Source: an uncultured archaeon (lineage in GTDB: Archaea > Thermoplasmatota > Thermoplasmata > Thermoplasmatales > Thermoplasmataceae). From it: a stretch of DNA of 64,000 nt. Position 1 is the stretch's first letter; the number at the start of each line of letters is the position of its first letter. Positions 17,834 to 60,856 of the stretch are shown one piece after another. The notes under the pieces are model-generated. The model saw only the letters and a list, made by a program, of their open reading frames with translations, did no database searches and was not told the DNA's origin. The translations under genes were made by a program, and so were the position numbers. The DNA lies in assembly GCA_000965745.1 (NCBI GenBank), contig CP009479.1, forward strand, positions 1,600,001 through 1,664,000. The letters are read 5' to 3'.

Positions 17834-17960
17834 GGAGAGCGTTAATTTCGAGGGAGACTTATACTTAACGGATAAAAATATTACTCCCATTCATCCAGCA
17901 ACTGTAAACAAGCAAAGGTGGAGTGTGTCTCCAGATTTGCATATTTACACATGCTATGGA

Positions 17961-19496: not shown

Positions 19497-19506
19497 TCCC
19501 GGACTT

Positions 19507-28216: not shown

Positions 28217-28237
28217 AGAGAATTTTTGGGTGATAGT

Positions 28238-29473: not shown

Positions 29474-29474
29474 A

Positions 29475-41808: not shown

Positions 41809-42107
41809 CGCGGTTTCCTCCTCGTTTTTTTATATGCTTCCTGGAGCAGTGATACCTCCAGTTCCTTCTCTGCAAGCATCTTCTTCAATCTCTCGTTCTC
41901 CTTCTTCAGCTTTCTGAGGCCTGGTTCCAAGGACCTTGTACGGGATCTGAGCCCATCCATGCCTAGTGCATCGAAGGCCTGTTTCCAACGGTAGAACATG
42001 GATGGATCCACAGAATATTTTCTGCAGGTTTCAACGACATGTCCGCTTTCTTTGATCTCGTTGATGAGTGCCAGTTTCTCTTCCGCTTTCCAGTATCTGC
42101 GAGTCAT
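41805..42107 (-). CDS. IS3 OrfA (HTH plus leucine zipper)
   Basis: EEKL..I..YRWK...LKKENERLK. Confidence 0.9.
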   Translation of the reverse strand: MTRRYWKAEEKLALINEIKESGHVVETCRKYSVDPSMFYRWKQAFDALGMDGLRSRTRSLEPGLRKLKKENERLKKMLAEKELEVSLLQEAYKKTRRKPR

Positions 42108-44110: not shown

Positions 44111-45019
44111 CTAAAGGAATCTTATCCTCGTCTCAAGTTCTCCAACCTGTTCAATGCCGGCCTGAACAAGATCTCCATCCTTGAGGTATTCCCCAGTCAT
44201 GGACCCGTTTTTCAAAGGTGTTCCGGTCGATATTATGTCCCCCGGCTCAAGGGTAATTCCTTTTGAAATGTATTCAAGGAGGGCCGGGATCTTGTGGGTG
44301 ATTGTATCTGTTCTTGCGCTCTGCTGTGTCTTGCCGTTTATGCGTACCTTGATCTCAAGATTATAGGGGTCCTTTACCTCGTCCTTTGTGACCATCCATG
44401 GACCCATCGGGGCTGCATTGTCCAGATTCTTCAGTCTCAGCCAGTTGACTTTGTGAATCGGTGAAGGGTGAGCCCTAAGGTCCCTGAAACTGAAATCATT
44501 CATCACTGTGTAGCCTGCCACACAGTCCATCGCTTCATCTTTTGAGACATCCTTGCATCTTTTCCCTATCACGAGCGCCAGTTCAATCTCATTGTCAGGC
44601 TGCCTTGAATATTCCGGAACGTTGACGGTCCCTTTATGGCCCAGAAGGCCGTTTGGAAGTTTTATGAAAACATAAGGCTCCTGCGGGGGTTTAGCCCCGG
44701 GCTCCGGTGCATGGGAGCTGTAGTTTATTCCCACCATCAGCATCTTGCTTGGCTTCAGAACAGGCGGAAGATACTCAATATTTCCCTCCTGGACGATGCA
44801 GGACTGTTCATTTCCATTCCTGCCCTCAAGAAGCTTCTTGAGGATTTCAAACGCATGCTCTCCACCTTTGAGAAGACAATCAACTGAATCGAACCAGTCC
44901 GGCGCATTTGATGCATATCTGGTCTCGAACAGTTTCCTGACATCCAGCAATTCTCCATTTTTGAACGTTCCAAGCCGTGGGCTGGAATTCTCTGTATATC
45001 TGTAATTCAGCAGCTTCAT
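44111..45019 (-). CDS. fumarylacetoacetate hydrolase family protein
   Basis: GINY..H, D.EIEL, ND.S.RD and GDIISTGTP motifs. Confidence 0.92.
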   Translation of the reverse strand: MKLLNYRYTENSSPRLGTFKNGELLDVRKLFETRYASNAPDWFDSVDCLLKGGEHAFEILKKLLEGRNGNEQSCIVQEGNIEYLPPVLKPSKMLMVGINYSSHAPEPGAKPPQEPYVFIKLPNGLLGHKGTVNVPEYSRQPDNEIELALVIGKRCKDVSKDEAMDCVAGYTVMNDFSFRDLRAHPSPIHKVNWLRLKNLDNAAPMGPWMVTKDEVKDPYNLEIKVRINGKTQQSARTDTITHKIPALLEYISKGITLEPGDIISTGTPLKNGSMTGEYLKDGDLVQAGIEQVGELETRIRFL

Positions 45020-45240: not shown

Positions 45241-46341
45241 GTGGGTTATTCGGAAGACAGTGCAAAGCAGGAAAAACGTTCTATTGACAGAAGGCTGATA
45301 CTTTTCTTTGCGGTTAACATATCTGTTACTGCTCTACTATTCCTGGTTCTTTTCGGAATCTCATCCACATTCACTGCAGGAACAAAAAAAATAATTCTTT
45401 CCTCTGGCATAATCACTTCAAATTTCATTTACCTTGGAGTCCTCGCTCTGCTTTTCGGCTTGAGGCATTCAGTGGATGCAGACCACATAGCTGCAATAGA
45501 CACGTCTACTAGAAAGCTCATAAATGAGGGAAAACGTTCCGAATTTGCTGGATTCTTCTTCAGCATGGGCCACTCCACCGTGGTATTCGCGCTGTCGGTT
45601 TTACTCATGACATCCACAAGGTACGTTACCAGCCACCTGCCCAGCTTAGAGACCCTGGGGTCAGTCATAGGGCCTCTTGTCAGTTCAACCTTCCTATTCA
45701 TAATGGCTGCGATAAACCTATCCATTCTATTCGGACTACGTGCCATTTTCCACAGGGCCCTCAAAGATGACGACGCCGGGAGATTGAGCATTGATGATTT
45801 AATAGGCAGAATGGGGATACTCAACAGAGTACTGAAAGGCCTTTTTTCTTCAGTGAAGAGCCAGGCATATCTATACCCCATAGGCCTTCTGTTCGGGCTT
45901 GGTTTCGACACCGCCTCTGAAGTGGTAGTTTTATCCATTTCAGCTACTCTTGCCGGACTTTTCGTCCATGTTCCACTATACGTTCTTCTCATATTCCCTG
46001 CATTCTTCACTCTTGGAATGACCCTTATTGACACGACTGACGGGTATATGATGTTCAGAGCCTACAGATGGGCATTTTCGGATCCGGTGAAGAAACTCTG
46101 GTATAACATGGTGCTCACAGCTGCCTCAGTCGCCTTTGCAGTTCTGGCAGGCGGCTTCGAGATCATATCCACAGTTACGGGATATTTTGGCCTCAATGGT
46201 TTTCCGTGGGCATTTTTTGAATCGGTATCCAACACCTACTGGTACGTTCTTGGAATTCTCATAATCTCGGTATTTGTTGTCATAGGTCTGCTCTCATACA
46301 TGAGGTATAGAAAGTACCTGGTTTCGAGGACAACCAGTTAG
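45241..46341 (+). CDS. NiCoT (HoxN/NixA) nickel/cobalt permease
   Basis: RHSVDADHIAAID, FFSMGHSTVV and GLGFDTASEV motifs. Confidence 0.93.
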   Translation: MGYSEDSAKQEKRSIDRRLILFFAVNISVTALLFLVLFGISSTFTAGTKKIILSSGIITSNFIYLGVLALLFGLRHSVDADHIAAIDTSTRKLINEGKRSEFAGFFFSMGHSTVVFALSVLLMTSTRYVTSHLPSLETLGSVIGPLVSSTFLFIMAAINLSILFGLRAIFHRALKDDDAGRLSIDDLIGRMGILNRVLKGLFSSVKSQAYLYPIGLLFGLGFDTASEVVVLSISATLAGLFVHVPLYVLLIFPAFFTLGMTLIDTTDGYMMFRAYRWAFSDPVKKLWYNMVLTAASVAFAVLAGGFEIISTVTGYFGLNGFPWAFFESVSNTYWYVLGILIISVFVVIGLLSYMRYRKYLVSRTTS

Positions 46342-46479: not shown

Positions 46480-47580
46480 ATGAACAGCAAGCTGGAAGAG
46501 TTGGCGAAGAGGTTTGAAAAGGAGCGAAAACCTACATACTACCAGGATTGGGTCAGGAAGGAGGGGCTGCGCATCATTTCTGGCCATTACATTTACGATC
46601 TCAGGGACGTTGAGCTTGACCCCTGGGAAAGAAGGGGAGGTTCAGCAGTTTTCATAAACCATGAAGATTCCCACAATTCAAATGACTGCTATATCTGCGA
46701 AATTCCACCGGAAGGGCAGCTGAAACCACAGAGGCAGCTCTATGAAGAGATGATCTACGTCCTGGATGGGCAGGGCGCAACTAGAGTGTGGAATGATGCG
46801 GGTGACAAGGTATCTTTCGAATGGCACTCTGGATCCCTTTTTGCCATTCCGCTAAATTCATGGCACGAACATTTCAACACATCAGGGAAGAGGCCTGCCA
46901 GATTCATTTCCGTCACCAATATGCCGGTCGTCATGAACCTGTTCGAGGATGACGATTTTGTCTTTAACACCAAGTTTGATTTCAAGAGCAGATTTTCCGG
47001 CCGATCCGACTACTATGATGCAAAAGACCAGCCGGAAGGTTTCTTCCTTGACACTAACTTTGTACCGGATGTAAGGACGTTGAAGCTTGTTAATGCAAAG
47101 GAGAGAGGAGCCGGCGGAGGTCACATAAGATTTAATCTTGCCAGGGGAACGATGAACAGCCATATCTCGGAATACCCTGTGGGGACTTACAAGAAGGCAC
47201 ACAGGCACGGACCGGGTGCACACGTGGTGATTCTCAGCGGCCAGGGGTACACCCTGATGTGGCCGGAGGGTGAGGAAATAAAGAAATACCCTTGGAAAGA
47301 AGGAAGTATGGTAGTTCCTCCAAACCTGTGGTTCCATCAGCATTTCAATACAGGACCACAGCCTGCCAGGTACCTTGCCTTGAAATATGAGGGAACCGCC
47401 ATAAGGAATGAACTGGGAATACCCAAAGCCTGGATAAGCACCAAGCTTGGTGGTGACCAGCTTGACTACTCAGACGAGAGTACCGAGATCAGAAAGATGT
47501 TTGAGGAGGAGCTGAGAAATAACAATGTTGAATCAAAAATGGCACCTTTCTATGCAAAGGAACTGGAGGAGAGCTCCTGA
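46480..47580 (+). CDS. bicupin protein (EutA-associated)
   Basis: Domain 1: QRQLYEE..WHEHFN. Domain 2: AHRHGPG..WFHQHFN. Confidence 0.85.
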   Translation: MNSKLEELAKRFEKERKPTYYQDWVRKEGLRIISGHYIYDLRDVELDPWERRGGSAVFINHEDSHNSNDCYICEIPPEGQLKPQRQLYEEMIYVLDGQGATRVWNDAGDKVSFEWHSGSLFAIPLNSWHEHFNTSGKRPARFISVTNMPVVMNLFEDDDFVFNTKFDFKSRFSGRSDYYDAKDQPEGFFLDTNFVPDVRTLKLVNAKERGAGGGHIRFNLARGTMNSHISEYPVGTYKKAHRHGPGAHVVILSGQGYTLMWPEGEEIKKYPWKEGSMVVPPNLWFHQHFNTGPQPARYLALKYEGTAIRNELGIPKAWISTKLGGDQLDYSDESTEIRKMFEEELRNNNVESKMAPFYAKELEESS

Positions 47581-47605
47581 AATTTCATCAGGCTGTGCAA
47601 CTTAA

Positions 47606-49084
47606 ATGAGCAATGAGGATCCCCCGACATTCGCCATACAGCATGATGAGGGTTGGGACATAGATTCGGTGAAACTCACCACAATTGGCATAGACATAGG
47701 GACTTCCAGCACCATTGTATCTGTGGCCTCCCTTAGCATGAAGAGGATGGCGCGAGACCTTTCCAGCCAGTTCACTGTTGTATCGAGGCGCGAGAATCAT
47801 GGTTCCAGGATAATGTTCACACCCTATACCGGTGACGAACGAATAGACGGAGATGCTCTTAAAAAGATGATTGATGAATTCTATTCGGAGCATGGTGTCA
47901 GGCCTGACGATGTCGACACCGGTGTGGTTATTCTCACGGGCGAAGCTTTGCTGAAGAAGAACTCTGAAGCGGTTGCCAATATTGTATCTCTTGGAAGGGG
48001 CAGGTTCGTGACCATAGCCGCCGGGCACCTGATGGAAGCCACTCTTGCAGCATTCGGCTCAGGGGCTGTTGAACTCTCAAAGAAAGAGGGAAAACGCATT
48101 CTGAATATTGATATTGGCGGTGGAACCACTAAACTCTCAGTTATTGAGAACGGTGAGATCGAGTCCGTCCAGGCAGTTCGTGTGGGTGGGCACACCATAG
48201 TGAGGGGGCCTGATGGAAGAATCACACGCATAGAGGAATCGGGGAAGGCAGTTCTTGAATGGCTCGGTTATGAATCAAATCCAGGAGATCTGCTGGATGA
48301 TGGAGCAATGGAAAAAGTGTCAGAATTCCTCGCACACTCCTTATTTGATGCCATTTTTGACGCAAAGAGTAATGACATAATCCCGGATTTCACACTCACG
48401 CCCTTAAGTGCTCCTCCCGGGAAAGATGTTGATGCTTTTGTAGTTTCAGGCGGCGTGGGTGAACATTTCTACGACCCGGATACCGAAGATTTTGGGGACC
48501 TCGGGAAAGGAATTGCCACGGTTCTCAGAAAAAGGCTTTCGGAGAGTGATATCAGCATCATGAGGCCGGATCACTGCATCCGGGCAACAGTAATGGGGCT
48601 GTCCCAGTACACCGCTCAAATCAGCGGAAGCACAGTCTATGTTTCGGATGAGAATGCACTTCCGCTCTTCAATATCAGAACGGTCAAAATCGAGGCGGAT
48701 CTCATCGGAGATATTGACAGTGAAAAGTTGAGGCAGAGAATCAAGGAAAGAACGGAGATGTTCGAAGTTGATGTTTCAAGCCCGTTTGCTATGTTTTTTC
48801 ATTGGGATGGAGCCCCCTCCTACAGAAGGCTGAGGGCATTCTGCGAGGGCATAATCAGGTTCGTCGGCTCAATTGATGAAGGGGCCCCGCCACTTATTCT
48901 GATCTTCGATGAGGACGTTGCTTGGATAATCGGAGATATGTTAAAAAGTGAGATGGGAGTAAGGCGAAAGGTTGTCTGCGTGGATGGAGTTTCCCTTGGA
49001 GATCTGGAATTCATAGATATTGGCAGCAAGATATATCCTGCGGGTGTACTTCCCCTGACGGTAAAATCACTCCTCTTCCATTAA
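47606..49084 (+). CDS. EutA-like ASKHA ATPase (reactivase family)
   Basis: GIDIGTSST, TGVVILTGE, AGH.MEA.LA..GSGA, DIGGGTTK, SGGVGE, IRATV.G and P.TVKSL motifs. Confidence 0.88.
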   Translation: MSNEDPPTFAIQHDEGWDIDSVKLTTIGIDIGTSSTIVSVASLSMKRMARDLSSQFTVVSRRENHGSRIMFTPYTGDERIDGDALKKMIDEFYSEHGVRPDDVDTGVVILTGEALLKKNSEAVANIVSLGRGRFVTIAAGHLMEATLAAFGSGAVELSKKEGKRILNIDIGGGTTKLSVIENGEIESVQAVRVGGHTIVRGPDGRITRIEESGKAVLEWLGYESNPGDLLDDGAMEKVSEFLAHSLFDAIFDAKSNDIIPDFTLTPLSAPPGKDVDAFVVSGGVGEHFYDPDTEDFGDLGKGIATVLRKRLSESDISIMRPDHCIRATVMGLSQYTAQISGSTVYVSDENALPLFNIRTVKIEADLIGDIDSEKLRQRIKERTEMFEVDVSSPFAMFFHWDGAPSYRRLRAFCEGIIRFVGSIDEGAPPLILIFDEDVAWIIGDMLKSEMGVRRKVVCVDGVSLGDLEFIDIGSKIYPAGVLPLTVKSLLFH

Positions 49085-49103
49085 TTTCTTTTGAGAATCG
49101 AAA

Positions 49104-50327
49104 TCACTGGGCCCCGGCCACTTCCGCTTTATCCCGGGAGTTCTTTTCCTGGAGCTTGAGGAATGGAAGCAGAAGGGAAGCGGATAGCGTGAAAATAAGC
49201 ATTATCCAGAAAGAGAAATAGAGGCTTTCCCTGTAGACAAGGAAGCTCGATAACGCAATGCCCGCTGCTCCGCCCAGAAATTGCCCGACGCCCCACACAA
49301 TTCCACCCGAAGAGGTTGAAATTTCCTTTGGGACGACCTGATTAAGATAGCCAAGAAGCGTTGGGAAACCACTGTAGGTGAAAAATGCATAAATGGAGAA
49401 GAAGAGTGCATCCAGTATCGCATTTGACCCCGACAGCAGGAGGAGGAAGAAGGCCAGCCCGGAGAATATAGTCGTCGTGGTAATTGAGAAAAACCCGCCT
49501 TTTCTCGTAGTCACAATTCCGAAGATGGTCTGCCCGGCTACTGGTGTTAAAACACCCATTGTAAAAATGAAAATTCCGAGAAACTGTGAATTTGTAACAT
49601 TGGCGAGATAGGAAGGCCCATAGGTAGCTACTGCCCTTATAACCATGGCCCTCAGGAAGACCACAGTCATCAGGGAAAATATGAACACCTTGAAAACTGA
49701 CATGTGCCCGGAGAGTGATTTCTTCTGCTTCCTGCCCCTTGATCTTGCAACGCCCTTAATCTTGGGCAATCCAAGGCTGACAAGAACAACAGCGGCGAAC
49801 GTGAAGCCGAGTGCCCACATTATGAACATGCCCTCTACCAGGCCGAATATTCCGATAAGGCCTGCAATTATCAATGGGAATATACCTCTCCCAAAACTTC
49901 CAAAAGAACCGTTTATTCCCAATATCATGGGAGTGTTTCTTCCGTATTCGGACCTTAGTATGCTGGAACCTATAGGGTGGTAGAATGACTGGCCGAAACC
50001 AAGAACTGTGACTCCAATTATGATGTAAAGGAATTCCAGGGTTCCATGCTGTACTGAAAATGCAAAGAAAAGTGCCGCCACTCCATTAAGTGCCAGTCCA
50101 AGTGCTATGAGGACACCCTTCCTCTCAAGTTTGTCTGCCAGTATTCCCACAGGGGTACTCATCGCGCCGGAAACTATCGGGTTCATTATGGCAAGGACTC
50201 CCAGAATTGCCAGATTTGTGGCGGGAAATTCCGTGTAAAGGAAGGTTATCAGTACAGGATAGAGAAATGTGCTGCCATCGTTGGCAAAATGAGCGAATGA
50301 TGTGATTCCAAATACTCTTTTTGACAC
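49104..50327 (-). CDS. MFS transporter (FSR-like)
   Basis: AHFAND, GILADK and FYHP motifs. Confidence 0.88.
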   Translation of the reverse strand: MSKRVFGITSFAHFANDGSTFLYPVLITFLYTEFPATNLAILGVLAIMNPIVSGAMSTPVGILADKLERKGVLIALGLALNGVAALFFAFSVQHGTLEFLYIIIGVTVLGFGQSFYHPIGSSILRSEYGRNTPMILGINGSFGSFGRGIFPLIIAGLIGIFGLVEGMFIMWALGFTFAAVVLVSLGLPKIKGVARSRGRKQKKSLSGHMSVFKVFIFSLMTVVFLRAMVIRAVATYGPSYLANVTNSQFLGIFIFTMGVLTPVAGQTIFGIVTTRKGGFFSITTTTIFSGLAFFLLLLSGSNAILDALFFSIYAFFTYSGFPTLLGYLNQVVPKEISTSSGGIVWGVGQFLGGAAGIALSSFLVYRESLYFSFWIMLIFTLSASLLLPFLKLQEKNSRDKAEVAGAQ

Positions 50328-50431
50328 CTTTACTGACCCGTATTGTTATTTTTGTTGAATATAATCTGTAAGCGCTGAAACTGTCTATGAATGCTTCCAG
50401 AAAATATATCGGGAGAAAGGCCGATATGCAA

Positions 50432-51049
50432 TCAGCTTTTCTGGGCTATTTTGGAACTTTCAAGAATTCTCTGGACTTCTGCAGAGTCGATCGTTTTGCC
50501 TTCCTGGTATTCGGGAGCATTCTCGATCTGTTCAAGGTCGTTGAGGCCACTGAATCTGTAAATCCTGTTTATGGCGGAAATTATTCTTAGAGGTTTGGTC
50601 TCTGATGAATTGAAGTGCTGATGGATTGTGTTTGGTGGTATGTAGACAACATCTCCCTGCCTCCAGTCGAACCTTTTCATCTCCCCCTGTGGGACAAATT
50701 CATACTTATCGGTTATCTCGACGTCACAGTCAACATGCTCGTCGTATCCCTTTCCTTCGAGTATGTAGAGGCACTCTTCAGCAAGATGCCTGTGTTTTCC
50801 TGACCTGCTGCCAGGAGGTATGATCTGCATGTAGACATCCACGGTCTCCATGAGGGTATCCATCTGGGAATTGATCATGTGCTTCAATATGCCCTGGGGT
50901 GCCAGTTCCCATGGCATTTCGATGGGCTTTACGACTCTCTTTTTTCCTTTGCTGTTCTCTGGCCTGTCCCTCGACTCATCGAGAAGACCTCTGTAGAAGT
51001 TGGCAGTCTGGTTCCCACTGAGCCATGTCTTGCTCTCTCCCCATGCCAT
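50432..51049 (-). CDS. cupin protein
   Basis: KHRHLAEE..ILEG.G...IPPNTIHQHFN. Confidence 0.88.
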   Translation of the reverse strand: MAWGESKTWLSGNQTANFYRGLLDESRDRPENSKGKKRVVKPIEMPWELAPQGILKHMINSQMDTLMETVDVYMQIIPPGSRSGKHRHLAEECLYILEGKGYDEHVDCDVEITDKYEFVPQGEMKRFDWRQGDVVYIPPNTIHQHFNSSETKPLRIISAINRIYRFSGLNDLEQIENAPEYQEGKTIDSAEVQRILESSKIAQKS

Positions 51050-51606
51050 TACTCACCACCTTCCTGGTCCGGGTCGGCGTCTTCCCTTGGCTCATATCCT
51101 ACTCCGTTTTCGGTAGGCTCAGTTGGCCTTGGAATAACAGTCTTCTGGAACAGCATATTCATGAACATGTACATTGGCTTGGTCTTTATGACAAGTGCAC
51201 GAGCCGGTTTCTCAGTATCCGCGTTATTGTGCTGGTGAACGCAATTGTTGGGAACAATGGCGACATCCCCCGCCTCCCAGTCATATCTTTCCCCGTCATG
51301 TATCTCATAGCCTTTTCCATCCAGTATGTAGAATGATGCCTCATTTACATGGCCATGCTTCTGGGATTTCCCTCCGGGAGAATATTCTTCCAGGTGGATG
51401 TGAAGTGTTTGGCCAAGCCCGTCAACAGGCTCAATATAATGCTTGCTGAATGTCTGGGGCCCGTCAACGAATTTGATTTCCTCTGCCCTCCTCACTCTTG
51501 GCAAAGACCTAAGTCTTTTGAGTTCTTCCTTAAGATTGTATTCGCCAGATATGGCTCTCACGAATACTCGGTCCTTCTTGCTGTGATAATGAGATTCAGT
51601 TCCCAT
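51049..51606 (-). CDS. cupin protein
   Basis: KHGHVNEA..ILDG.G...VPNNCVHQH; translationally coupled to the next cupin. Confidence 0.88.
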   Translation of the reverse strand: MGTESHYHSKKDRVFVRAISGEYNLKEELKRLRSLPRVRRAEEIKFVDGPQTFSKHYIEPVDGLGQTLHIHLEEYSPGGKSQKHGHVNEASFYILDGKGYEIHDGERYDWEAGDVAIVPNNCVHQHNNADTEKPARALVIKTKPMYMFMNMLFQKTVIPRPTEPTENGVGYEPREDADPDQEGGE

Positions 51607-51728: not shown

Positions 51729-52499
51729 TTACTCTTTTGCAACATTCCATCTGGTGAGGTATTTCTCCAACTGCAGCAATGCAAGGTTAATAGCAATACT
51801 GATGAGCGCGACTGCCGATACCACCACGTATAATTTTATCGGTTGAATGGTGTTTGCAAAGTGAGCTGCTAGGTCCCCTACACCCGATGAGCCGGCCCAT
51901 TCCTCTGCAATCAAGACACCACCCAGCGTGAGGTTGAACGAGAGTCTGGCAGCACTGAGAATGCTCGGAAATACGTTTGGCAGCATGAGCTTCAGCTGGA
52001 GTTGAAGGGAACTGGCACCGAGTGATCTTGAGAGCCTTACGAGATTGGGGTCTACGTTGCTTACAGTATACATCGTAGTTATGAGTACGGGAAACATTCC
52101 GCTGATGAACCCGAAAAAGAACTCATAGCTGAAACCGTATCCAAGCAGGACAGAGAACAGTGTCACGAACATTACCCTCGGGATCGAATTAGCAAGGACA
52201 AGGTAAGGCTCCAGAACCTTTCTCAGATACAGGACCTCTCCTATTATCATACCCAGGGCGGCACCTGCCGCTACCGTACTTACAAACGCTGAAAGCACTA
52301 TCCCCAGGGAATATATGATCTGCGAGTAAATGGAGGGCGTGCCAATAATCGATGCGAAGTGCGTCACAGTATCAATTGGGGAACTGAGCAGTGGGTGAGG
52401 TACTATATTGGCTGAGTAAATGTACTGCCATATAGAAAAGAAGATTGCGAAAGCAAGTATTTGAAGGCCTACGATAATGGCGGTTTTCCTAATGAGCAT
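51729..52499 (-). CDS. ABC transporter permease (NitT/TauT family)
   Basis: EAA-like SRSLGAS loop; LIAEE. Confidence 0.9.
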   Translation of the reverse strand: MLIRKTAIIVGLQILAFAIFFSIWQYIYSANIVPHPLLSSPIDTVTHFASIIGTPSIYSQIIYSLGIVLSAFVSTVAAGAALGMIIGEVLYLRKVLEPYLVLANSIPRVMFVTLFSVLLGYGFSYEFFFGFISGMFPVLITTMYTVSNVDPNLVRLSRSLGASSLQLQLKLMLPNVFPSILSAARLSFNLTLGGVLIAEEWAGSSGVGDLAAHFANTIQPIKLYVVVSAVALISIAINLALLQLEKYLTRWNVAKE

Positions 52500-53271
52500 A
52501 TGGCATCACCAACCTCTCAATTATGGCCAAAGCTACCAGTATCCCAGCGACTATCAATACCAATATGATTATTACCGAAAACATGAGTCCAGGGTCAAAA
52601 CTTCCAGAACTTATGCTTATCACACTTCCCAGACCATTCTCTGAAGCGATCACCTCGGCAAAAATAACGCCGATGATGGAAAAGACGAGAGAGATCCTTA
52701 TGCCAGCAAGTATGGCGCCAGCCGATGATGGTATCATGACTTTCGAAAATATCTGTGCGTTCGAAGCACCATAAGACTGCGCCAGCCTGATGTATGACTG
52801 CTTGGTCCTTCGTATGCCCGAAGAGACAATTATGATCGAAGGAAAAATTGCAAGAAATATTGCAATCGCTATCCTTGATGCTGGGTCAATCCCTAGTGTC
52901 AGGTACATAACAGGGTAGAGTATTGGCCCTGGTATTGAATAGAGCACATACACTATGGGTTCGTAAGCCTGGCCGATGAGCTTGAAGTAACCGATGGCCA
53001 TACCGACAAATATCCCCAGGCTCGAGGCAATTGCAAATGCGACGAGTATCTCGAAGAGGGTAAGCTTGAACGGAACTATGATTCCGTGAGGATAATTCGG
53101 ATAGCTGCTTGGTGCCCCGAAATATGGCAGGAAAAGTCTGTGAAAAGAGAGAACCGTCTGGGTGAATCCTGTGAATACGAAGGGATTATCGTACAGGATG
53201 TGTGCCAGCTGCCATCCTAATGCAAATACAATGGGCACAGCTATTAAGCCGATGAGAACCTTAAGCTTCAT
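52489..53271 (-). CDS. ABC transporter permease (NitT/TauT family)
   Basis: AQSYGAS; AEVIASENGLG. Confidence 0.9.
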   Translation of the reverse strand: MKLKVLIGLIAVPIVFALGWQLAHILYDNPFVFTGFTQTVLSFHRLFLPYFGAPSSYPNYPHGIIVPFKLTLFEILVAFAIASSLGIFVGMAIGYFKLIGQAYEPIVYVLYSIPGPILYPVMYLTLGIDPASRIAIAIFLAIFPSIIIVSSGIRRTKQSYIRLAQSYGASNAQIFSKVMIPSSAGAILAGIRISLVFSIIGVIFAEVIASENGLGSVISISSGSFDPGLMFSVIIILVLIVAGILVALAIIERLVMPYAH

Positions 53272-54058
53272 TGCTTAGCGTCCCCTCTCCGCCCAAATCT
53301 GTCATTTTTGCGGACATGTATGACCACAGCTGTCGCCTTATTTCAACCAGCCCCGGATCATCGGGATTTCTTGGTTTTTTCACATCAATGTTGATTTCTG
53401 CCTTCACCGCAGCCGGTTTGCCGGAAAGCACTATAATCTTGTCGGCAAGATAAGTAGCCTCTATGAGGCTATGGGTCACAAACAGAATGGTCTTGCCTGT
53501 TTCTTTCTGAATCCTGACCAACTCATCCCCAAGGGCAAATCTGCTCTGTTCGTCAAGTGCCCCGAAAGGCTCATCCATCACCAGGATTTTCGGATCAAGT
53601 GTCAAGGCTCTCGCCACGCTTACCCTCTGCTGCATTCCTCCGGAAAGCTGCGAAGGAAAATAATTCCTGAACTTGGCAATGCCAGTCAGTTCAAGATATT
53701 TCATTGCAACTTCCTCTCTTTTGGATTCCTCGACTCCCTTGAGTTCGAGTCCAAACTCGACGTTTTGAATGGCTGTTCTCCAAGGGAAAAGGCTTGCGTC
53801 CTGGAAGACCATAGTCAGGACATCCGGTTGAGGTCCGGTAACCGATTCACCAACAAGCGTGATCTCACCTTCATCAGGTTTCTTCAGGCCGCCAACAAGG
53901 TCAAGGAACGTAGATTTTCCTATACCGCTTGGTCCAACAATTGTTACGAACTTGCCCTCTTCCACACTGACAGACAGGTTCTGTAGAACGTGATTTGTTG
54001 ATCCGTCTGGAGCTTTGAACGATTTAGAGACGTTTTTAACTTCGAGTATTATAGACAC
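53261..54058 (-). CDS. ABC transporter ATP-binding protein
   Basis: GPSGIGKST, LSGGMQQR, MDEPFGALD and VTH motifs. Confidence 0.95.
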   Translation of the reverse strand: MSIILEVKNVSKSFKAPDGSTNHVLQNLSVSVEEGKFVTIVGPSGIGKSTFLDLVGGLKKPDEGEITLVGESVTGPQPDVLTMVFQDASLFPWRTAIQNVEFGLELKGVEESKREEVAMKYLELTGIAKFRNYFPSQLSGGMQQRVSVARALTLDPKILVMDEPFGALDEQSRFALGDELVRIQKETGKTILFVTHSLIEATYLADKIIVLSGKPAAVKAEINIDVKKPRNPDDPGLVEIRRQLWSYMSAKMTDLGGEGTLSNEA

Positions 54059-54164: not shown

Positions 54165-55465
54165 GGTTCATCCTAGAATTGTGTGGGTATTTTTATCCTT
54201 CTTTTCATTATATTTCCCATGCAGGATGCTGAACAGTTGTACTCCGAGCTCTTAGGGCTCAAGAACCCTTGGAGGGTGAGAGTGTTTCACTTGATTCAAA
54301 TGACAAGGTTGTTGAAGTCTTCATAGCACACGACAGGGGAGCTAAGCTCCCATGTCCCGAGTGCAGGAGGGAGTGCATGGTCTACGATCATCTGAGGGAA
54401 AGGGTCTGGAGGGATCTTGACAGCATAGGGTTCAAGACATTCATTCATGCCAGATCACCAAGGATACAGTGTCCGGAGCATGGCATAAGAGAGGCGGTCA
54501 TGCCCCTCTCCGAGAAGAGATCAAGGTTCACTCTCAGATTCGAATCAAGATCCATAAGGATGCTCCAGAACATGGATGTTGAGAATTTCACCCGGGTAAT
54601 GGACATTTCCTGGAGCCGGGCATGGAACATCATCGATCATGCGGTTAAGAGAGGACTGTCAAGGAAAACATCAAGGCCAAGGATCATAGGCGTTGATGAC
54701 AAATCGTACAGGAAGGGGCACAAGTACATCACGCTGGTGATGGACATGGAGAACAGCGGTGTTGAGTTCATCTCCATGGACAGGAGGAAATCATCACTCG
54801 ATGAGTATTACAAAACGATGAGTGATGATGAATTATCTCGCATAGATGCGGTATCAATGGACATGTGGGATCCGTACATATCATCCACGCTTGAGCATGT
54901 ACCACAGGCTCATTCAAAGATCGTCTTCGACAGGTTTCATGTCATGCGCCATGTGAATGAAGCGGTTGATGCGGTGAGGAAGGAGGAGAATCGTGAACTG
55001 GTGAAGAAGGGTATCATGGACCTCAAAGGATCAAGGTACATATGGCTCTATTCCGGCGATCGCCTTCCCGAAAGGTACAGGGAGCGGTACAATGAGCTAA
55101 GGAATTCAGATCTAAGGACGGGCAAGGCGTACTCCATGAAGGAGAACATAAGGAACCTGTGGAATCTCCCCTCAATGGAGGATGCAATGGATTACTGGAA
55201 GAGATGGCACTCCTGGATCGTGCACTCCTCGATTGATGCAATGAAGAAGGTGGCGAAGATGATGCGAATGCACATCGACAAGATACTGAACTATTTCATC
55301 CACAGGATAACAAACGCAAAGGCAGAGGGAATCAATTCAAAGATCGCGCTGATAGAGAAGATGGCGTATGGATTCAGGAACAGAGGCCATCTCAAGACAG
55401 CAATATATTTCAAATGCGGAAATCTGGAGCTTTATCCATGAGCCCACACAAAACTAGGAAGAACC
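54165..55465 (+). mobile_element. ISL3-family element, 1301 bp
   Basis: IRs GGTTCATCCTAGAATTGTGTGGG / GGTTCTTCCTAGTTTTGTGTGGG; 8-bp TSD AATTATTA at 54157-54164 and 55466-55473. Confidence 0.95.
54219..55441 (+). pseudogene. ISL3 transposase with 1-bp frameshift near codon 20
   Basis: MQDAEQLYSELLGLKNPWRV continues in another frame as ESVSLD..CPEC..CPEHG..DMW..DRFH..TNA.AEG.N. Confidence 0.85.
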
Positions 55466-55496: not shown

Positions 55497-56570
55497 ATGG
55501 CCCTTCAGAAAGATTCAGAAGTTTTCTTAAACCAGCTTGTCCACAAAGGATTCAACACGTACTACGTTTCAAACCAGGGGGGCGGAAAAGGCGGGGGAAC
55601 CTTTACGCGAAATCCCGCCCCCCTCTTCAGCCCCTACAGTTGGAAGTACACCGACGCGAGATCTTATCTTTACAAGCTTTCTGAATTCCTTTCCCACGAA
55701 GATTCTGAAAGAATAAACATCCAATATGAGCATCCCGACCTCAAGGACATCATTTCCGCTGCCACAAGCACCACGCAGAGAGCTGGCATCCAACTCGTGA
55801 AGAGTAAGGCCCATGGACCTGTCCACAGACATACGCCTAATTCATTCCGGGTGGTTCTGGAAGCTCCTGAGGAAGGTGCAATAAGCCGAATAGACGGGGT
55901 GAATCTGGAAATGCACCCGGGTGATGTAATCGGGAACACCAACTGGATCTGGCATGAGCACTTCAACCATGGGACTTCAGATCTAATATGGACATCTTTT
56001 CTGGATGCCATACTGGTTAAATGGATCGGAGGGGTTTTCTATGACCCACCGAAGACATTCAATGGGGACGTGAATTTTCCGGACATATCTCAGGAAGAAT
56101 ATGTAAGCGTGCTTGGCCGATCAACCCTTCCAGAGGAGCTTGGGACAAATCCCAATACTCCACTGCAGTTCTACAGATTCTCTGATGCCTGTAAATCGGT
56201 CAGTGCTCTCTCAAAATTGAAAAGGGGGAAGGAAAGGGTAGCGGTGGAATACAAGAACCCAACCACCGGCGGATCGATTTCGGCAAACCAGTCGCTCAAG
56301 CTAAACCTGATTCCAGGTGGATGCTTAACCCCCATGACAAGGAAAACAGAGAACATCATCTTCCTGAATTTTTCAGGTGAAACTACGCTGGAATTGGGTA
56401 ACGGTGAAGGAGAATTTGTTCTTGGCAAGTACGATGTCGCAGTATTGCCTTCATGGACCTCACACAGAGTGGTTAACAATTCATATTCTGATGAAGCTCT
56501 CTATTTTACAGCTTCTGACGCCCCGTTATTCAAAAATTGCGGCCTATATCGTGAAGAAATTGTCGGGTGA
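55497..56570 (+). CDS. gentisate 1,2-dioxygenase-like cupin
   Basis: VHRHTPNS.R, W.WHEH.N, YKNPTTGG and SDAPL motifs. Confidence 0.85.
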   Translation: MALQKDSEVFLNQLVHKGFNTYYVSNQGGGKGGGTFTRNPAPLFSPYSWKYTDARSYLYKLSEFLSHEDSERINIQYEHPDLKDIISAATSTTQRAGIQLVKSKAHGPVHRHTPNSFRVVLEAPEEGAISRIDGVNLEMHPGDVIGNTNWIWHEHFNHGTSDLIWTSFLDAILVKWIGGVFYDPPKTFNGDVNFPDISQEEYVSVLGRSTLPEELGTNPNTPLQFYRFSDACKSVSALSKLKRGKERVAVEYKNPTTGGSISANQSLKLNLIPGGCLTPMTRKTENIIFLNFSGETTLELGNGEGEFVLGKYDVAVLPSWTSHRVVNNSYSDEALYFTASDAPLFKNCGLYREEIVG

Positions 56571-56727: not shown

Positions 56728-57789
56728 ATGAATAAGACAACGACGATTGCAGTAGCGATTGTTGTTGCTGCTGTTGTCATAGCCGGCGGAATTGTTGGCT
56801 TTGGAACCATTACCAGTGGTAAGAGCAGCGGCAGTAACAACACGAACTACTTGTCTAAGACGAGTTTCAGCGTAGCCGATTTTGGAATTGATCACCCGGA
56901 CGCTGGAGCTTACGGATGGATGGCGGGCACTAGTCACACAAATACGAGCAACACGCTGCAGAAGTACGATCCCAATATAAAGGTCGTAGACCTGAAGGGT
57001 GGAAGTGGCGCAGTAGCATCAGCAATTGCGGCTGGAACAGTACAGATGGGAATGCTCTCCGCTGATGGTGCACTTCACGCAATAAACTCCAGTGTGCCGA
57101 TCAAGATAGTGGGAGTGTACAGAACGTCACCTATAGGTGATTTTGTGTATGTTTCGCCTAGCTCAACCTACAACAAGCTATCGGACCTATCGGGAAAGAA
57201 CGTTACTTTCGCAAACAGCAAGCCAGGAAGCCTGGATGTTCTCCTGAATGGAATAATTGCAGCAGACTACAAAGTGAACATAACACATGATTACGTAGGA
57301 TCACATGAGGCACAGCAGGCAGCAGTGCTTAATGGGAAGGCAACCGCATCCACAGGAGCGTATTTCGATGTATACAAGCTTGTTAAGAGCGGATACCTAA
57401 AGTCCATCGGCAATATAACAGAGAACTGGCCGGCCTTCGTGGTTGTTGCCAACACATCGTTCATACACAATCACCCCAACGCAGTGAAGGCAGCACTTAT
57501 GGGAATGGAATACGGAAACTACCTGTTCGACCAGAACGCAGGCAACTTTGCATACAACTTCCTGAAGTCATACTACAACTTCTCAGCAAGCGAAACTCAG
57601 TTCTTCATGAGCACAATGCACTATTCAACAAACGGAACAATATACCTCAAATCACTTAATGAAGAGCTTACGACCTTGCAGGCGGACAATATCATTTCAC
57701 CGAACCTCAAACTATCACAGCTTTACACAGACCAGTTTTCACAGGTAGTGAATACAACGTATCCGCCAGGAATAATAAGAGCAGCTTGA
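56728..57789 (+). CDS. ABC substrate-binding protein (SsuA/NMT1-like), membrane anchored
   Basis: N-terminal TM; GGSG..AI.AG; FI..HP.AV.A. Confidence 0.82.
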   Translation: MNKTTTIAVAIVVAAVVIAGGIVGFGTITSGKSSGSNNTNYLSKTSFSVADFGIDHPDAGAYGWMAGTSHTNTSNTLQKYDPNIKVVDLKGGSGAVASAIAAGTVQMGMLSADGALHAINSSVPIKIVGVYRTSPIGDFVYVSPSSTYNKLSDLSGKNVTFANSKPGSLDVLLNGIIAADYKVNITHDYVGSHEAQQAAVLNGKATASTGAYFDVYKLVKSGYLKSIGNITENWPAFVVVANTSFIHNHPNAVKAALMGMEYGNYLFDQNAGNFAYNFLKSYYNFSASETQFFMSTMHYSTNGTIYLKSLNEELTTLQADNIISPNLKLSQLYTDQFSQVVNTTYPPGIIRAA

Positions 57790-57878: not shown

Positions 57879-60299
57879 TTATGCCCTGTTTATCAGGTTG
57901 CGTATCTTTTCAGGAGTGAGTGGCAGAGTAGACACCTTTGCGCCATATTCAGAAAGTGCGTCTTCAACTGCATTGCACATTGTGACCAGGGGTCCGAACG
58001 TTTCTCCTTCACCAATGCCCTTTATCCCTAGTGAAGAGCGAGGTGAAGGGGTAACCACATGATCATCCACGATGTTTGGTATCTCCATGGTGGTGGGTTT
58101 CAGATAGTTCGCGAATGATGATGCTATAAGCTGCCCGTCTTCGTCGTAAACGAAATCCTCCATCAAGGCCACGCCAATTCCGTGGGCGACCCCGCCGTGT
58201 AATTGCCCCTGCACTATCTGTGGGTTTATTACATTCCCGATGTCGTGAACAACGAAGTACTTCAGAATGCTGATGATCCCTGTTTCTCTGTCAACTTCTA
58301 TCAATGCAACGTGTGCGGAGTTGGGGTACGTCATATATCCTGTTGGCGAGCCTGATCCGGTCACAAGCTGGTGAGTGGCACCTGTTTCTATCTCTTTAGT
58401 CGCATCAAAGGCCTTGACAGCAGACTCGTTGTTCCCAATCCATGTTACCTCAAGGCCGGGGTCTATTTTGCCGGGTACAAGATAGGGATTCTGGTACGTT
58501 GCCTTTGCAATGTCCTGTATTGTTACCTTGTTTTCCGGGTTGGTCTTCGAGAATGCCACACTCTCGGATACCTCAATATCCTCGGGACCGGTTTTCAACA
58601 TCGCAGCGGCATTCGTAACAACTTTTTGCCTCAGCAGCTTTGCTGCCATCACTGCTGCCTCCACGTCAGGCCCGGAGAATTTGTTTGCATGTGTCCCTGA
58701 GAATGGCGTCCAAGGGCTGTAGTACGAGTCAAACGGATGCACCCTAATGTCATCCGGCTTCATTCCAACAATATCAGAAACTATCTGCACAAATGCGGTA
58801 GAGTGTGAGGTTCCCATATCCGGAGAGCCAGATCTCACGGATGCTGTCCCCCTGGGGTCTATGTTTATGGTAATGCCCTCGATCTCCCTTGCCGTTGCAG
58901 ATGCACCATGTATATATGTCGTGATGCCAATTCCAACCAGCCTTCCCTGCTCCTTAAGCCTGTCCCGTTCCTTTTTCATCTCTTCGTAACCAGAGACTTC
59001 CAGAGCTTTTTTGAGGACGGCCGGGTAATTCCCTGAATCATATATCCTCCCACTTGGTGTTACATATGGAAACTCATCGGGTTGGATGAAATTCCTGAAC
59101 CGTATTTCTGCAGGATCCATCTTCAATTCCTGTGCGACAGTCTCGATCATTCTTTCCACAATGTATACAATTCCAGGTTTGCCGACACCCCTGTTGGGCA
59201 TAGACGGGCATTCATTGGTAAGAACTGTATATGAATCCCACTCAATGTTATTTATTTTGTAGCATCCGCTTATGAGTGTGGCGTGCATTGAAGCATAAGT
59301 TCCAGCATAAGTGAGGGATGCACCGTCATTGTTTATGTCCCTGAACCTGAACGCAAGGATTTTTCCGTCCTTCTTTGCTGCAACTTCTATATCTGCCATA
59401 AGTCCGGCTGTCTGGCCTCCGGATGAAAGATGCTCCGTTCTGTCTTCGAGGTACTTTACATTCATACCGGGCAGCTTCATTGCCAGAATAGTTGCTATTG
59501 AGAGTTGCCTCCAAGGCCTGGTCTTCAGTCCAAAGCCACCTCCTATATCATTGATTATCAGGTGCACGCTGTTAGATGGAATCCCGAAAATCTTCGAAAT
59601 AGTCATCATCACGTGGCCCGGCATCTGGGCATTAGATTTCAGTGTAAGCTCTCCGGAAATGTCATCGTATGTGGCGATAACAGAGACTGATTCAAGCGGT
59701 GTTGAACTGTATCTCTGAAGGCCCACCCTCTTTTTTAACACGACATCCGCCTGCTTGAAGGCACCTTCCACGTCGCCCCACTTACCATGGTTATGGCCCA
59801 CAACGTTCGTTCCAAATGAGTCATAGACTAGCGGAGAATCCTTTGACATAGCACTTTCAGGGTCCACTACAGGTTTTAGAGGCTCATATTCGACGTCTAT
59901 CAATTCAAGAGCATCTTCCGCCAGTTCAGGAGAGATGGCTGCAACTGCCGCTACTGGCTCTCCCATGTACCTGACCTTCTTGGTTGCAAGACAGTATTCT
60001 TCGGACGGGAACTTTGATATGGCATAGGGAGGCAGTGGCTGGGAATATTTCAGAGCATCATCGCCTGTTGCAACTTCTATTACCCCTTCCATCTTCCGGA
60101 CCCGCGAAACATCCACCTTCAGTAATCTGGCATGTGCGTACGGGCTCCTCAGGATTGCCACGAATACGGTGTCCGCCACCCTCAAGTCTTCCACAAAGTT
60201 GGTGTTTCCCGTCAACAGTCTCTTGTCCTCTACCCTTCTAAGTGACGTGCCTATGTAATTTCTTCTTTCTTCCTGGGTTACCTGGATCTGTTCTACCAT
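57879..60299 (-). CDS. molybdenum hydroxylase (xanthine dehydrogenase/CoxL-like) large subunit
   Basis: RSPYAHA, GGGFGLK, GQLHGG and KGIGE motifs; lacks the CODH AYxCSFR loop. Confidence 0.92.
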   Translation of the reverse strand: MVEQIQVTQEERRNYIGTSLRRVEDKRLLTGNTNFVEDLRVADTVFVAILRSPYAHARLLKVDVSRVRKMEGVIEVATGDDALKYSQPLPPYAISKFPSEEYCLATKKVRYMGEPVAAVAAISPELAEDALELIDVEYEPLKPVVDPESAMSKDSPLVYDSFGTNVVGHNHGKWGDVEGAFKQADVVLKKRVGLQRYSSTPLESVSVIATYDDISGELTLKSNAQMPGHVMMTISKIFGIPSNSVHLIINDIGGGFGLKTRPWRQLSIATILAMKLPGMNVKYLEDRTEHLSSGGQTAGLMADIEVAAKKDGKILAFRFRDINNDGASLTYAGTYASMHATLISGCYKINNIEWDSYTVLTNECPSMPNRGVGKPGIVYIVERMIETVAQELKMDPAEIRFRNFIQPDEFPYVTPSGRIYDSGNYPAVLKKALEVSGYEEMKKERDRLKEQGRLVGIGITTYIHGASATAREIEGITINIDPRGTASVRSGSPDMGTSHSTAFVQIVSDIVGMKPDDIRVHPFDSYYSPWTPFSGTHANKFSGPDVEAAVMAAKLLRQKVVTNAAAMLKTGPEDIEVSESVAFSKTNPENKVTIQDIAKATYQNPYLVPGKIDPGLEVTWIGNNESAVKAFDATKEIETGATHQLVTGSGSPTGYMTYPNSAHVALIEVDRETGIISILKYFVVHDIGNVINPQIVQGQLHGGVAHGIGVALMEDFVYDEDGQLIASSFANYLKPTTMEIPNIVDDHVVTPSPRSSLGIKGIGEGETFGPLVTMCNAVEDALSEYGAKVSTLPLTPEKIRNLINRA

Positions 60300-60301
60300 A
60301 A

Positions 60302-60856
60302 TTATGAACCTCCTGAATTTTTATTGTTCCTGTTTCCTGCTTCACTTCCGAAATTCGATGAGCTTGCCTCTTTAACTGCCTTGATTATGTTGAGGTACCC
60401 TGTGCACATGCAGAGATTTCCTGCCAGCCCTTTCCTTATCTCTTCTTCGGACGGGTGTGGGTTCTTTCCCAACAGATAAAGGGAAGACATCAGGAATCCA
60501 GGGGTGCAATAGCCGCATTGCAATGCATGGTTTCTGGCAAAGGATTCCTGCAGAGCGCTAAGATTGCCGTTGGAACTTATCCCTTCAACGGTGGTGACCT
60601 TTGTTCCATTCGCCCTCGCAGCGAGAACAGTGCAGGACTTGACGGATTTTCCGTCCATGAGGACCGTGCATGCTCCGCAGTTTGTCGTGTCACACCCTAC
60701 ATGTATGCCCTTGACGCCCAGATGGTCCCTCAAAAAGAAAGCGAGGAGAGACCTCGGCTCAACGTCAGCCTCTACCGGTACACCATTAAGCTCAAATTCC
60801 AGGTCGATTTTCTGTACACTCACTTCTTTCCTCTTTTTCCTTTGGGAAGAGATCAT
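60302..60856 (-). CDS. Mo-hydroxylase 2x[2Fe-2S] small subunit
   Basis: GCD..CGACT, QCGYCTPG and CMCTGY motifs. Confidence 0.95.
   Translation of the reverse strand: MISSQRKKRKEVSVQKIDLEFELNGVPVEADVEPRSLLAFFLRDHLGVKGIHVGCDTTNCGACTVLMDGKSVKSCTVLAARANGTKVTTVEGISSNGNLSALQESFARNHALQCGYCTPGFLMSSLYLLGKNPHPSEEEIRKGLAGNLCMCTGYLNIIKAVKEASSSNFGSEAGNRNNKNSGGS

Follow-up and report, generated by a model that had tools for sequence, protein, structure and literature searches.

In Escherichia coli and Salmonella, EutA is the ATP-dependent reactivating factor of ethanolamine ammonia-lyase (EutBC), an adenosylcobalamin-dependent enzyme. Here we analyze a EutA-like ATPase gene that adjoins cupin genes in an uncultured archaeon of the family Thermoplasmataceae (GenBank assembly GCA_000965745.1); the stretch of DNA analyzed, referred to as the window, comprises 64,000 nucleotides of contig CP009479.1. 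The archaeal protein resembles EutA in belonging to the same Pfam family over its full length, with an ASKHA core and a C-terminal domain, and in keeping the nucleotide-binding motifs and many structural residues, and it would also resemble EutA in the ATP-powered remodeling of a partner enzyme. However, its proposed client is a cupin instead of a B12 enzyme, and most members of its clade carry His-rich tails.

Two further groups of accessory factors are pertinent. The reactivases of diol and glycerol dehydratases (DdrAB, PduGH, and GdrAB) are ASKHA-type ATPases whose target is an enzyme and not a metabolite, and they release its spent cofactor. Like them, the window ATPase would be a dedicated reactivase encoded beside its client, whereas DdrAB, PduGH, and GdrAB belong to a different family, are composed of two subunits, serve B12 enzymes, and are not among the top structural matches of the window protein. 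The known Ni/Co factors HypA/HypB, UreE/UreG, and CooC/CooJ are P-loop (SIMIBI) NTPases or small swapping chaperones, and the nitrile hydratase activator is found together with NhlF, a NicO-family protein. A possible likeness to Ni/Co metallochaperones lies in the His-rich tracts of most clade members and in the NicO-family genes at some loci, a linkage that is inconsistent among the archaeal relatives, and the likeness to Ni/Co insertases would lie in the coupling of nucleotide hydrolysis to the filling of a buried metal site. Unlike these insertases, the model of the window ATPase has an ASKHA fold and not a P-loop (SIMIBI) fold, and the window copy lacks a His tract.

On the side of the putative client, the closest described enzymes are the gentisate, salicylate, and 1-hydroxy-2-naphthoate 1,2-dioxygenases, the class III ring-cleaving bicupins (e.g., PDB 3BU7, 2D40, and 2PHD). 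The bicupin of the window shares with them the bicupin fold, an HxH...H 3-His motif, the best sequence matches in the PDB, and a catabolic context. It differs from the gentisate dioxygenases, which have their 3-His Fe(II) site in the N-terminal barrel, in that its own site is in the C-terminal barrel while the N-terminal barrel has QRQ; in addition, it is far below the cut-off of the gentisate dioxygenase family TIGR02272, and its structural likeness is generic. To our knowledge, none of the known class III ring-cleaving bicupins needs an ATPase. XylT-type [2Fe-2S] ferredoxins reactivate catechol 2,3-dioxygenase reductively and without ATP; they are likewise dedicated, co-encoded proteins that keep a metalloenzyme of aromatic ring cleavage active, but they are unrelated to the window ATPase and use another mechanism.

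A EutA-family ATPase of a separate clade

The window ATPase matches the Pfam family PF06277 with 328 bits (cut-off, 27) over residues 23 to 492 and profile positions 2 to 475. In contrast, its scores are below the cut-offs of all four NCBIfam EutA equivalogs, NF007991 to NF007994 (261.9, 194, 175, and 159 bits for cut-offs of 598, 769, 952, and 799, respectively). The ASKHA motifs, which a first-pass annotation made from the DNA letters alone had described as intact, are all present, including the phosphate-1, phosphate-2, and adenosine motifs (D30-x-G32, D169-I-G-G-G-T-T-K176, and S281-G-G-x-G-E286). Among these residues, D30/G32, D169-G171-G172-G173, and S281-G282-G283 are invariant in the cupin-linked and canonical EutA clades alike. 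The structural model (predicted local distance difference test [pLDDT] of 86) consists of an ASKHA core and a C-terminal alpha/beta domain. A fold search of this model against the PDB gave generic ASKHA matches, the best being Ppx/GppA, MreB, PilM, and HgdC-type activators, and neither the sequence nor the fold searches of the PDB revealed a solved EutA-family structure or complex.

Sequence identity with EutBC-adjacent EutA proteins is 26 to 28%, and 26 to 30% over the set from E. coli, Listeria, C. difficile, Brevibacillus, Acetoanaerobium, and Halalkalicoccus, and thousands of proteins of about 500 residues are 37 to 41% identical to the window ATPase. The latter derive from soil, groundwater, and other metagenomes as well as from cultured bacteria (Alicyclobacillus, Paenibacillus, Streptomyces, Aromatoleum, Caulobacter, and Phyllobacterium). 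In a FastTree phylogeny of 104 sequences, the six EutBC-adjacent proteins, the only canonical sequences in the set, are split from 98 cupin-linked ones with 100% Shimodaira-Hasegawa-like local support, and the window ATPase groups with three other archaeal sequences. The residues that separate the clades include K176 (N in canonical EutA), H141 (P in canonical EutA), Q338, W400, G402, P404, R408, and D435. Judged from its sequence, the window protein thus belongs to a separate, cupin-linked clade within the family of EutA ATPases and is not a canonical EutA.

The genomic context of B12 enzymes agrees with this placement. The genome is a single contig of 2.23 Mb rated 99.4% complete, with an SSU rRNA that is matched best by the archaeal model, and it contains a single EutA-family gene and no match to EutB (PF06751) anywhere; the earlier observation that eutB is missing from the window therefore holds for the rest of the genome as well. 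EutB was not found in four of five other genomes carrying the clade, and in the loci examined an ATPase of the cupin-linked clade is never located beside EutBC. No B12-enzyme family was detected among the window open reading frames (ORFs) scanned. The one B12 enzyme found in the genome is a methylmalonyl-CoA mutase, encoded about 800 kb away; it was considered as a client of the ATPase and rejected as unsupported, given this distance and the occurrence of the clade with cupins across genomes.

Cupin partners and the predicted complex

The gene set reported by the first-pass annotation, namely a bicupin gene followed by a full-length EutA-like ATPase gene and two translationally coupled monocupin genes, is present at the positions given there. 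The ATPase gene starts 25 nucleotides past the bicupin stop codon, and the stop codon (TAA) of monocupin A and the start codon (ATG) of monocupin B overlap by one base in a TAATG, preceded by GGTGGTGAG. Ahead of the bicupin ATG is an AT-rich, TATA-like stretch, from which the bicupin may be supposed to have its own promoter. The ATPase gene had also been described as facing the coupled monocupin genes; the coupled pair is indeed there, but in the window a gene of the major facilitator superfamily (MFS) separates it from the ATPase gene. In the closest relative (locus L002), the ATPase and monocupin genes are directly convergent, with no MFS gene in this position.

A congener at 56% identity (L002/L003) shares this set of four genes, as does, in a rearranged order, another genus of the same archaeal family (G010). 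They were also found in a Nitrososphaerales metagenome-assembled genome, two Alicyclobacillus species, Paenibacillus thalictri, many Burkholderiales, and Acidobacteriota, and the gene set recurs in two other archaeal genera and in many Pseudomonadota, Acidobacteriota, and Actinomycetota. For a survey of this linkage, 80 loci from different species were collected with flanks of 10 kb. An orthologous bicupin (more than 520 bits, 60 to 65% identical) is present at about 39 of the 80 loci, and most of the others have a more distant bicupin adjoining the ATPase; both monocupin orthologs are present at about 13 of the approximately 39 loci with an orthologous bicupin. These cupin counts are from phmmer, as the reduced ORF set used for all-against-all BLAST undercounts genes in GC-rich loci because of greedy ORF choice.

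Co-occurrence at the genome level shows the same trend. Among 301 sampled Alphaproteobacteria genomes, 6 have the ATPase and 7 have a member of the bicupin family; every one of the six ATPase carriers has a bicupin, mostly in an adjacent position, while only 1 of the 295 genomes lacking the ATPase has a bicupin, which is a distant one. In the order of Aromatoleum (251 genomes sampled), two carriers were found, too few for statistics. Furthermore, ATPase distances track those of the adjacent bicupins (Mantel r of 0.81 for 51 pairs, with none of 999 permutations as high), and in genomes with two or three ATPase-bicupin pairs the differences between the ATPases parallel those between the bicupins. 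Evolution of the ATPase is much the faster of the two, with about 40% identity across the domains of life versus about 62% for the bicupin. The gene arrangement is far beyond chance. A chance adjacency of ATPase and cupins was accordingly rejected, since the linkage is kept across the 80 loci and the 301-genome sample, and the conserved cupin linkage on which the first-pass annotation depended is borne out.

Copy numbers of the two partners are not always equal. Several alphaproteobacterial carriers hold more bicupin paralogs than ATPases; for example, some of these bacteria with genomes of 2.4 to 3.6 Mb (G160, G192, G287, and G310) have at least six bicupin paralogs and only two to four EutA-like ATPases. 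The bicupin family is rare overall in the alphaproteobacterial sample and strongly expanded where it is present. A third ATPase subtype, with a GGRVFFSNVRR-like N terminus and no His tract, is paired with a more distant bicupin (about 170 bits). It is represented by the second ATPase copies at nine loci (L015, L020, L028, L029, L030, L033, L059, L060, and L085) and often shares a large operon with the His-rich subtype.

The two barrels of the window bicupin differ in their putative metal sites. Barrel 1 has Q84-R85-Q86 where HxH is expected, together with E89/E90, H129, and H131, whereas the C-terminal barrel has a 3-His site, H241-R-H243 ... H286, plus H288. The protein is 60 to 65% identical to 25 orthologs from archaea and bacteria, and the mean column identity over the 26 sequences is 80%. 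Residues N60-H61, R85, E89-E90, H129, H131, and N133 of barrel 1 and H215, H228, K238-K239, H241, H243, H286, H288, and N290 of barrel 2 are invariant in this set. This pattern points to one canonical 3-His site in the C-terminal barrel and an altered N-terminal pocket with an invariant arginine. The QRQ triplet that the first-pass annotation had noticed in place of HxH is therefore not only real but conserved. Sequence searches of the PDB gave gentisate-type dioxygenases as the closest solved relatives of the cupins, with low scores; against TIGR02272 (cut-off, 442.1 bits), the bicupin reaches 22.6 bits and monocupin A reaches 24.3 bits. The bicupin model (pLDDT of 85) matches generic bicupins in the PDB with a template modeling score of about 0.5, a value that is the same for oxalate decarboxylase and seed storage proteins. 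In a library of 1.84 billion representatives, 362 clusters are related to the bicupin at an E value of 1e-30 or lower.

Both monocupins have full ligand sets. Monocupin B has a complete 3-His-plus-Glu site (H86-x-H88-x3-E92 and H143), is 35% identical to bicupin domain 1, the N-terminal barrel, and is 56 to 84% identical to 15 orthologs that keep the motifs. Monocupin A has a 3-His site (H84-x-H86 and H124), is 36% identical to domain 2, the C-terminal barrel, and is 65 to 90% identical to 22 orthologs. Because B corresponds to barrel 1 and A to barrel 2, the pair looks like a split, order-swapped, and fully liganded paralog of the bicupin. The monocupins are not obligatory for the module: no monocupin A ortholog was found in Phyllobacterium chamaecytisi, which has the bicupin and the ATPase, and Streptomyces lanatus has a monocupin only as a fused form with 43% identity. 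These two species weaken the earlier proposal that all three cupin proteins build a single enzyme.

The prediction of a complex between the ATPase and the bicupin gave a score of 0.69, versus 0.00 for the best of three controls. As a guide, a score of 0.69 is reached by 58 of 80 solved complexes and by 2 of 110 mismatched pairs; these counts apply only approximately here, because the alignments were custom-made. At least 85% of the contacts are shared between runs, and the pLDDT of the partner is at least 86. Confident contacts join ATPase residues 340 to 343, 403 to 409, and 436 to 449 with bicupin residues 77 to 80, 98 to 102, 112 to 114, 130 to 137, 179 to 181, and 196. In the predicted arrangement, the C-terminal domain of the ATPase is docked on the face of the degenerate barrel 1, around the WHEHFN motif. 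The predicted interface overlaps or adjoins W400, G402, P404, R408, and D435, which are invariant in the cupin-linked clade and variable in canonical EutA, a pattern expected from a change of client. Recall from a solved complex is unlikely, because the PDB searches revealed no EutA-family structure or complex. Thus, the interaction with the bicupin that the first-pass annotation had suggested is predicted well above the controls, and docking on the QRQ barrel would fit its idea of unequal roles.

Metal handling and the role of the ATPase

Several features of the clade are suggestive of metals. An N-terminal DHDHDH-type tract is located just before the conserved core in 82 of 96 ATPases of the clade, and 53 of the 96 have a long His-rich C-terminal tail; an archaeal genus other than that of the window keeps an RHHHDDDE tract. 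NicO-family genes are present within 10 kb at 16 of about 84 loci; the lineages concerned are unrelated and number at least four, among them that of the window, where a HoxN-type Ni/Co permease gene that the first-pass annotation did not mention lies 138 nucleotides upstream of the bicupin gene. True HoxN-type NicO genes are near the module in the window, Alicyclobacillus, and Caulobacter, and a divergent NicO-like form of 260 to 270 residues is found in betaproteobacterial operons. From these sequence features, the His-rich tails and NicO neighbors would be signs of metal handling across the clade. No conserved cysteines for a redox cluster were found in the ATPase.

In one lineage of Burkholderiales, a His-rich linker of about 90 residues joins the ATPase to the double permease of an ATP-binding cassette (ABC) importer. 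This fusion is represented by eight protein clusters (L104:8598-12191, protein P0127, plus clusters P0128 to P0134). Besides the fusion gene, the operon encodes a NicO-like protein, the bicupin and both monocupins, as well as three solute-binding proteins and a LigXa-type Rieske oxygenase. The nearest NCBIfam families of the fused or neighboring importer are the aminoethylphosphonate and polyamine types, with scores far below the cut-offs; metal and an organic acid are both candidates for its substrate.

Taken together, the separate clade, the lack of eutB, the conserved cupin linkage, and the predicted complex argue for a client other than EutBC, and for a cupin, as the first-pass annotation had proposed. 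We give an even chance to the reading that the ATPase, rather than reactivating a B12 enzyme, is dedicated to the bicupin, and perhaps to the monocupin pair as well, as an accessory factor that uses ATP for maturation or reactivation. If the loading and the repair of the cupin metal center are counted together, an ATP-driven maturase or reactivase of this center seems rather probable. The C-terminal alpha/beta domain of the ATPase would dock on the N-terminal bicupin barrel with the degenerate metal site (QRQ), and the binding and hydrolysis of ATP in the ASKHA core would drive a conformational change. This change would permit the insertion of the catalytic metal into the cupin site, or its exchange once the metal has been lost or oxidized, in parallel with canonical EutA, which frees damaged cobalamin from EutBC with ATP. 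We infer that ATP is used, in which direction the factor acts (loading or repair), which metal is concerned (Ni, Co, or Fe), and what the substrate is. A more far-reaching version is that the clade is a new class of metallocenter assembly factors, the first of the ASKHA type to insert or exchange the metal of a mononuclear cupin site with the help of ATP, and that a degenerate barrel of the client serves as a decoy for docking. In this version, gene transfer has carried the clade between archaea and at least eight bacterial phyla, and it would serve uncharacterized, extremely conserved cupins that convert aromatic acids and possibly depend on Ni or Co. To this version we would assign somewhat less than an even chance.

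A number of observations weigh against an accessory role in metal loading or repair. Fe(II) dioxygenases typically have a 3-His ligand set, and we know of no ATP-dependent insertase for them. A catalytic subunit that uses ATP would account equally well for the tight operon coupling, the complex score is a model confidence and not a measurement, and correlated distances and co-occurrence can come from linked inheritance alone, so that the Mantel result is supporting evidence and not proof. The window ATPase and its two closest relatives lack the His-rich tract. The window NicO gene is the only NicO-family gene of the genome and therefore may be a housekeeping gene. Moreover, among 40 relatives, NicO is present in four and the module in two, and the two do not travel together: the congener with both has them on different contigs, NicO was not found in the other genus with the module, and the module was not found in three genomes with NicO. 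Owing to this inconsistent distribution, the proposition that NicO proves nickel is weakened; NicO is a possible member of the module and a possible metal supplier. With no His tract in the window ATPase and NicO unlinked in relatives, the cupin metal could be Ni, Co, or simply Fe, and the case for nickel in the window archaeon is weak.

Three other explanations compete with an accessory factor of the cupin metal center. That the protein is an ordinary EutA, with EutBC encoded elsewhere in the genome or recently lost and with coincidental cupin neighbors, is suggested by the PF06277 match and by the name EutA given to its relatives in public sources. However, EutB is missing from a one-contig genome of such completeness, the protein scores below the equivalog cut-offs and belongs to a clade separate from the EutBC-adjacent proteins, the cupin neighborhood is conserved across domains of life, and the putative client-binding residues are clade specific. 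We consider this explanation highly improbable, and a canonical EutA with a distant eutBC was rejected on the grounds of the missing EutB and the separate clade. The EutA-like protein might instead be a stoichiometric, ATP-consuming catalytic subunit of a multicomponent cupin enzyme, for instance one that phosphorylates the substrate, and no chaperone at all. Activation of a substrate by phosphorylation is known among ASKHA enzymes (acetate kinase and the hydantoinase and acetone carboxylase family), and the fold matches of the window ATPase include ASKHA kinases and phosphatases besides chaperone-like members. The tight coupling of the two genes, their perfect co-occurrence in the sampled genomes, and the predicted interface are all compatible with such a subunit, and an unusual energy-requiring step could be needed because the archaeal islands have no flavin monooxygenase. 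Nevertheless, enzyme reactivation is the only characterized function in the EutA family, the frequent His-rich tails point to metal handling, the ATPase diverges far faster than the cupins, and the natural fusions tether it to a membrane permease and not to cupins. The occurrence of more bicupin paralogs than ATPases in several genomes is also easier to reconcile with a shared helper than with an obligate subunit. We regard a catalytic subunit as unlikely.

Equally improbable in our view is a strict reactivase, which would act when the cupin has been inactivated by oxidation or by its own mechanism, for example through the ejection of Fe(III) or of a tightly bound dead-end ligand, and would play no part in the first metal delivery. 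The ATPase is homologous to a true reactivase and has kept the whole EutA architecture, and the 3-His site of the bicupin resembles the sites of Fe(II) ring-cleavage enzymes that are sensitive to oxygen. In addition, the archaeal copy, being free of His tracts, may have no need to carry metal itself, and the predicted docking on the barrel beside the catalytic one would suit a prying action. By sequence, though, a strict reactivase is indistinguishable from a maturase, the His-rich tails and NicO neighbors of other lineages suggest metal supply, and conserved cysteines for a redox cluster are absent.

A full-text literature search for the pairing of EutA with a cupin found none; the matches combining the two terms deal with the eut microcompartment or with the "eut" genes of ectoine, for which the likeness is in name alone. 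It is generally assumed that cupin metalloenzymes acquire their metal unaided. If the proposed accessory role is true, an ATP-driven loader or repairer would change the view of metal selectivity and enzyme lifetime in one of the largest enzyme superfamilies, and it would correct a widespread misannotation, in which thousands of proteins are labeled as ethanolamine-lyase reactivases in organisms without that lyase. The bicupin and the split monocupin pair, 60 to 90% identical between archaea and bacteria, would mark an important uncharacterized catabolic reaction. The hypothesis is directly testable, as the thermoacidophile-type archaeal proteins are small, are free of disordered His tails, and should therefore suit structural and biochemical work.

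The surrounding island

The features of the island are listed in Table 1.

Table 1. Genes of the EutA-cupin module and of the island around it, with positions in the window
Feature	Position	Strand	Basis or remark
Fumarylacetoacetate hydrolase (FAH)-family protein	44111..45019	-	PF01557, 212.9 bits; pathway context
HoxN/NixA-type Ni/Co permease (NicO)	45241..46341	+	PF03824, 244.5 bits; TIGR00802, 280.9 bits
Bicupin, 366 residues, likely client enzyme	46480..47580	+	Two Cupin_2 stretches
EutA-family ASKHA ATPase, 492 residues	47606..49084	+	PF06277, 328 bits
MFS transporter	49104..50327	-	PF07690, 85.5 bits; context, probably outside core module
Monocupin B, 205 residues	50432..51049	-	Cupin_2, 46.9 bits
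Monocupin A, 185 residues	51049..51606	-	Cupin_2, 58.8 bits
TauT/NitT-type ABC importer, two permeases and ATPase	51729..54058	-	BPD_transp_1 twice, ABC_tran; pathway context
ISL3 transposase	54269..55441	+	Pfam/NCBIfam scans
Gentisate-1,2-dioxygenase-like bicupin, separate likely ring-cleavage enzyme	55497..56570	+	TIGR02272, 137.5 bits, full length, below cut-off
Solute-binding protein	56728..57789	+	Pfam/NCBIfam scans
CoxLMS-type molybdenum hydroxylase: large, 2Fe-2S, and FAD subunits	57879..61734	-	Pfam and NCBIfam families
4,5-Dihydroxyphthalate decarboxylase (PhtD) homolog	62032..63036	+	phmmer versus PDB 9jp7: E 2.2e-55, 191 bits
Second gentisate-dioxygenase-like gene, cut by window end	63152..64000	+	ORF listing, Pfam/NCBIfam scans

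The archaeal modules have similar neighbors, namely CoxLMS hydroxylase, gentisate-dioxygenase-like bicupins, FAH-family or alpha/beta hydrolases, and ABC importers. More specifically, the FAH-family gene also neighbors the module in the congener (L002) and at the Nitrososphaerales locus (L004); the TauT-type ABC importer is conserved in L002 and G010; and both the gentisate-dioxygenase-like bicupin and the CoxLMS-type hydroxylase are shared by L002, L004, and G010. No flavin monooxygenase was found in the archaeal islands. Recurrent neighbors in bacteria are LigXa-type Rieske oxygenases with a reductase, UbiD/UbiX, a conserved thiamine diphosphate (ThDP) enzyme, a 3-hydroxyisobutyrate-dehydrogenase-like reductase, IclR regulators, and TctABC or ABC importers. 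Decarboxylases of the PhtC-like (303 bits for a cut-off of 200) and PhtD-like types also recur near the bacterial modules. In many betaproteobacterial loci, a gene of the PhtD-like family is the immediate neighbor of the EutA-like gene, and a neighbor family from 18 loci matches the PhtD homolog of the window by tblastn. Judged from this gene content, the island most likely serves the catabolism of hydroxylated aromatic or heteroaromatic carboxylates, with the cupins acting on such a carboxylate.

Three transposase-bearing elements are present in the window: the ISL3 element inside the island, an IS3-type element (HTH_Tnp_1 and rve ORFs; positions 40912 to 42107) just upstream of it, and a Mutator-family transposase (positions 4598 to 5761) near the window start. 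The island is patchy in relatives and is flanked and interrupted by insertion sequence elements, which points to horizontal acquisition.

Two other groups of genes were noted in the window. Positions 17961 to 20184 and 20440 to 23055 comprise two ORFs of 511 and 225 residues with no Pfam match and, adjoining them in divergent orientation, the gene of an 871-residue NosD/beta-helix protein. Genes for a homocitrate-synthase-like protein, the large and small subunits of an aconitase-family enzyme, and an isopropylmalate/homoisocitrate dehydrogenase are clustered, with an amino-acid kinase and a semialdehyde dehydrogenase nearby (positions 28226 to 32300 and 16003 to 17890 for the whole group); from its gene content, this cluster looks like ordinary lysine or arginine biosynthesis of the alpha-aminoadipate type.

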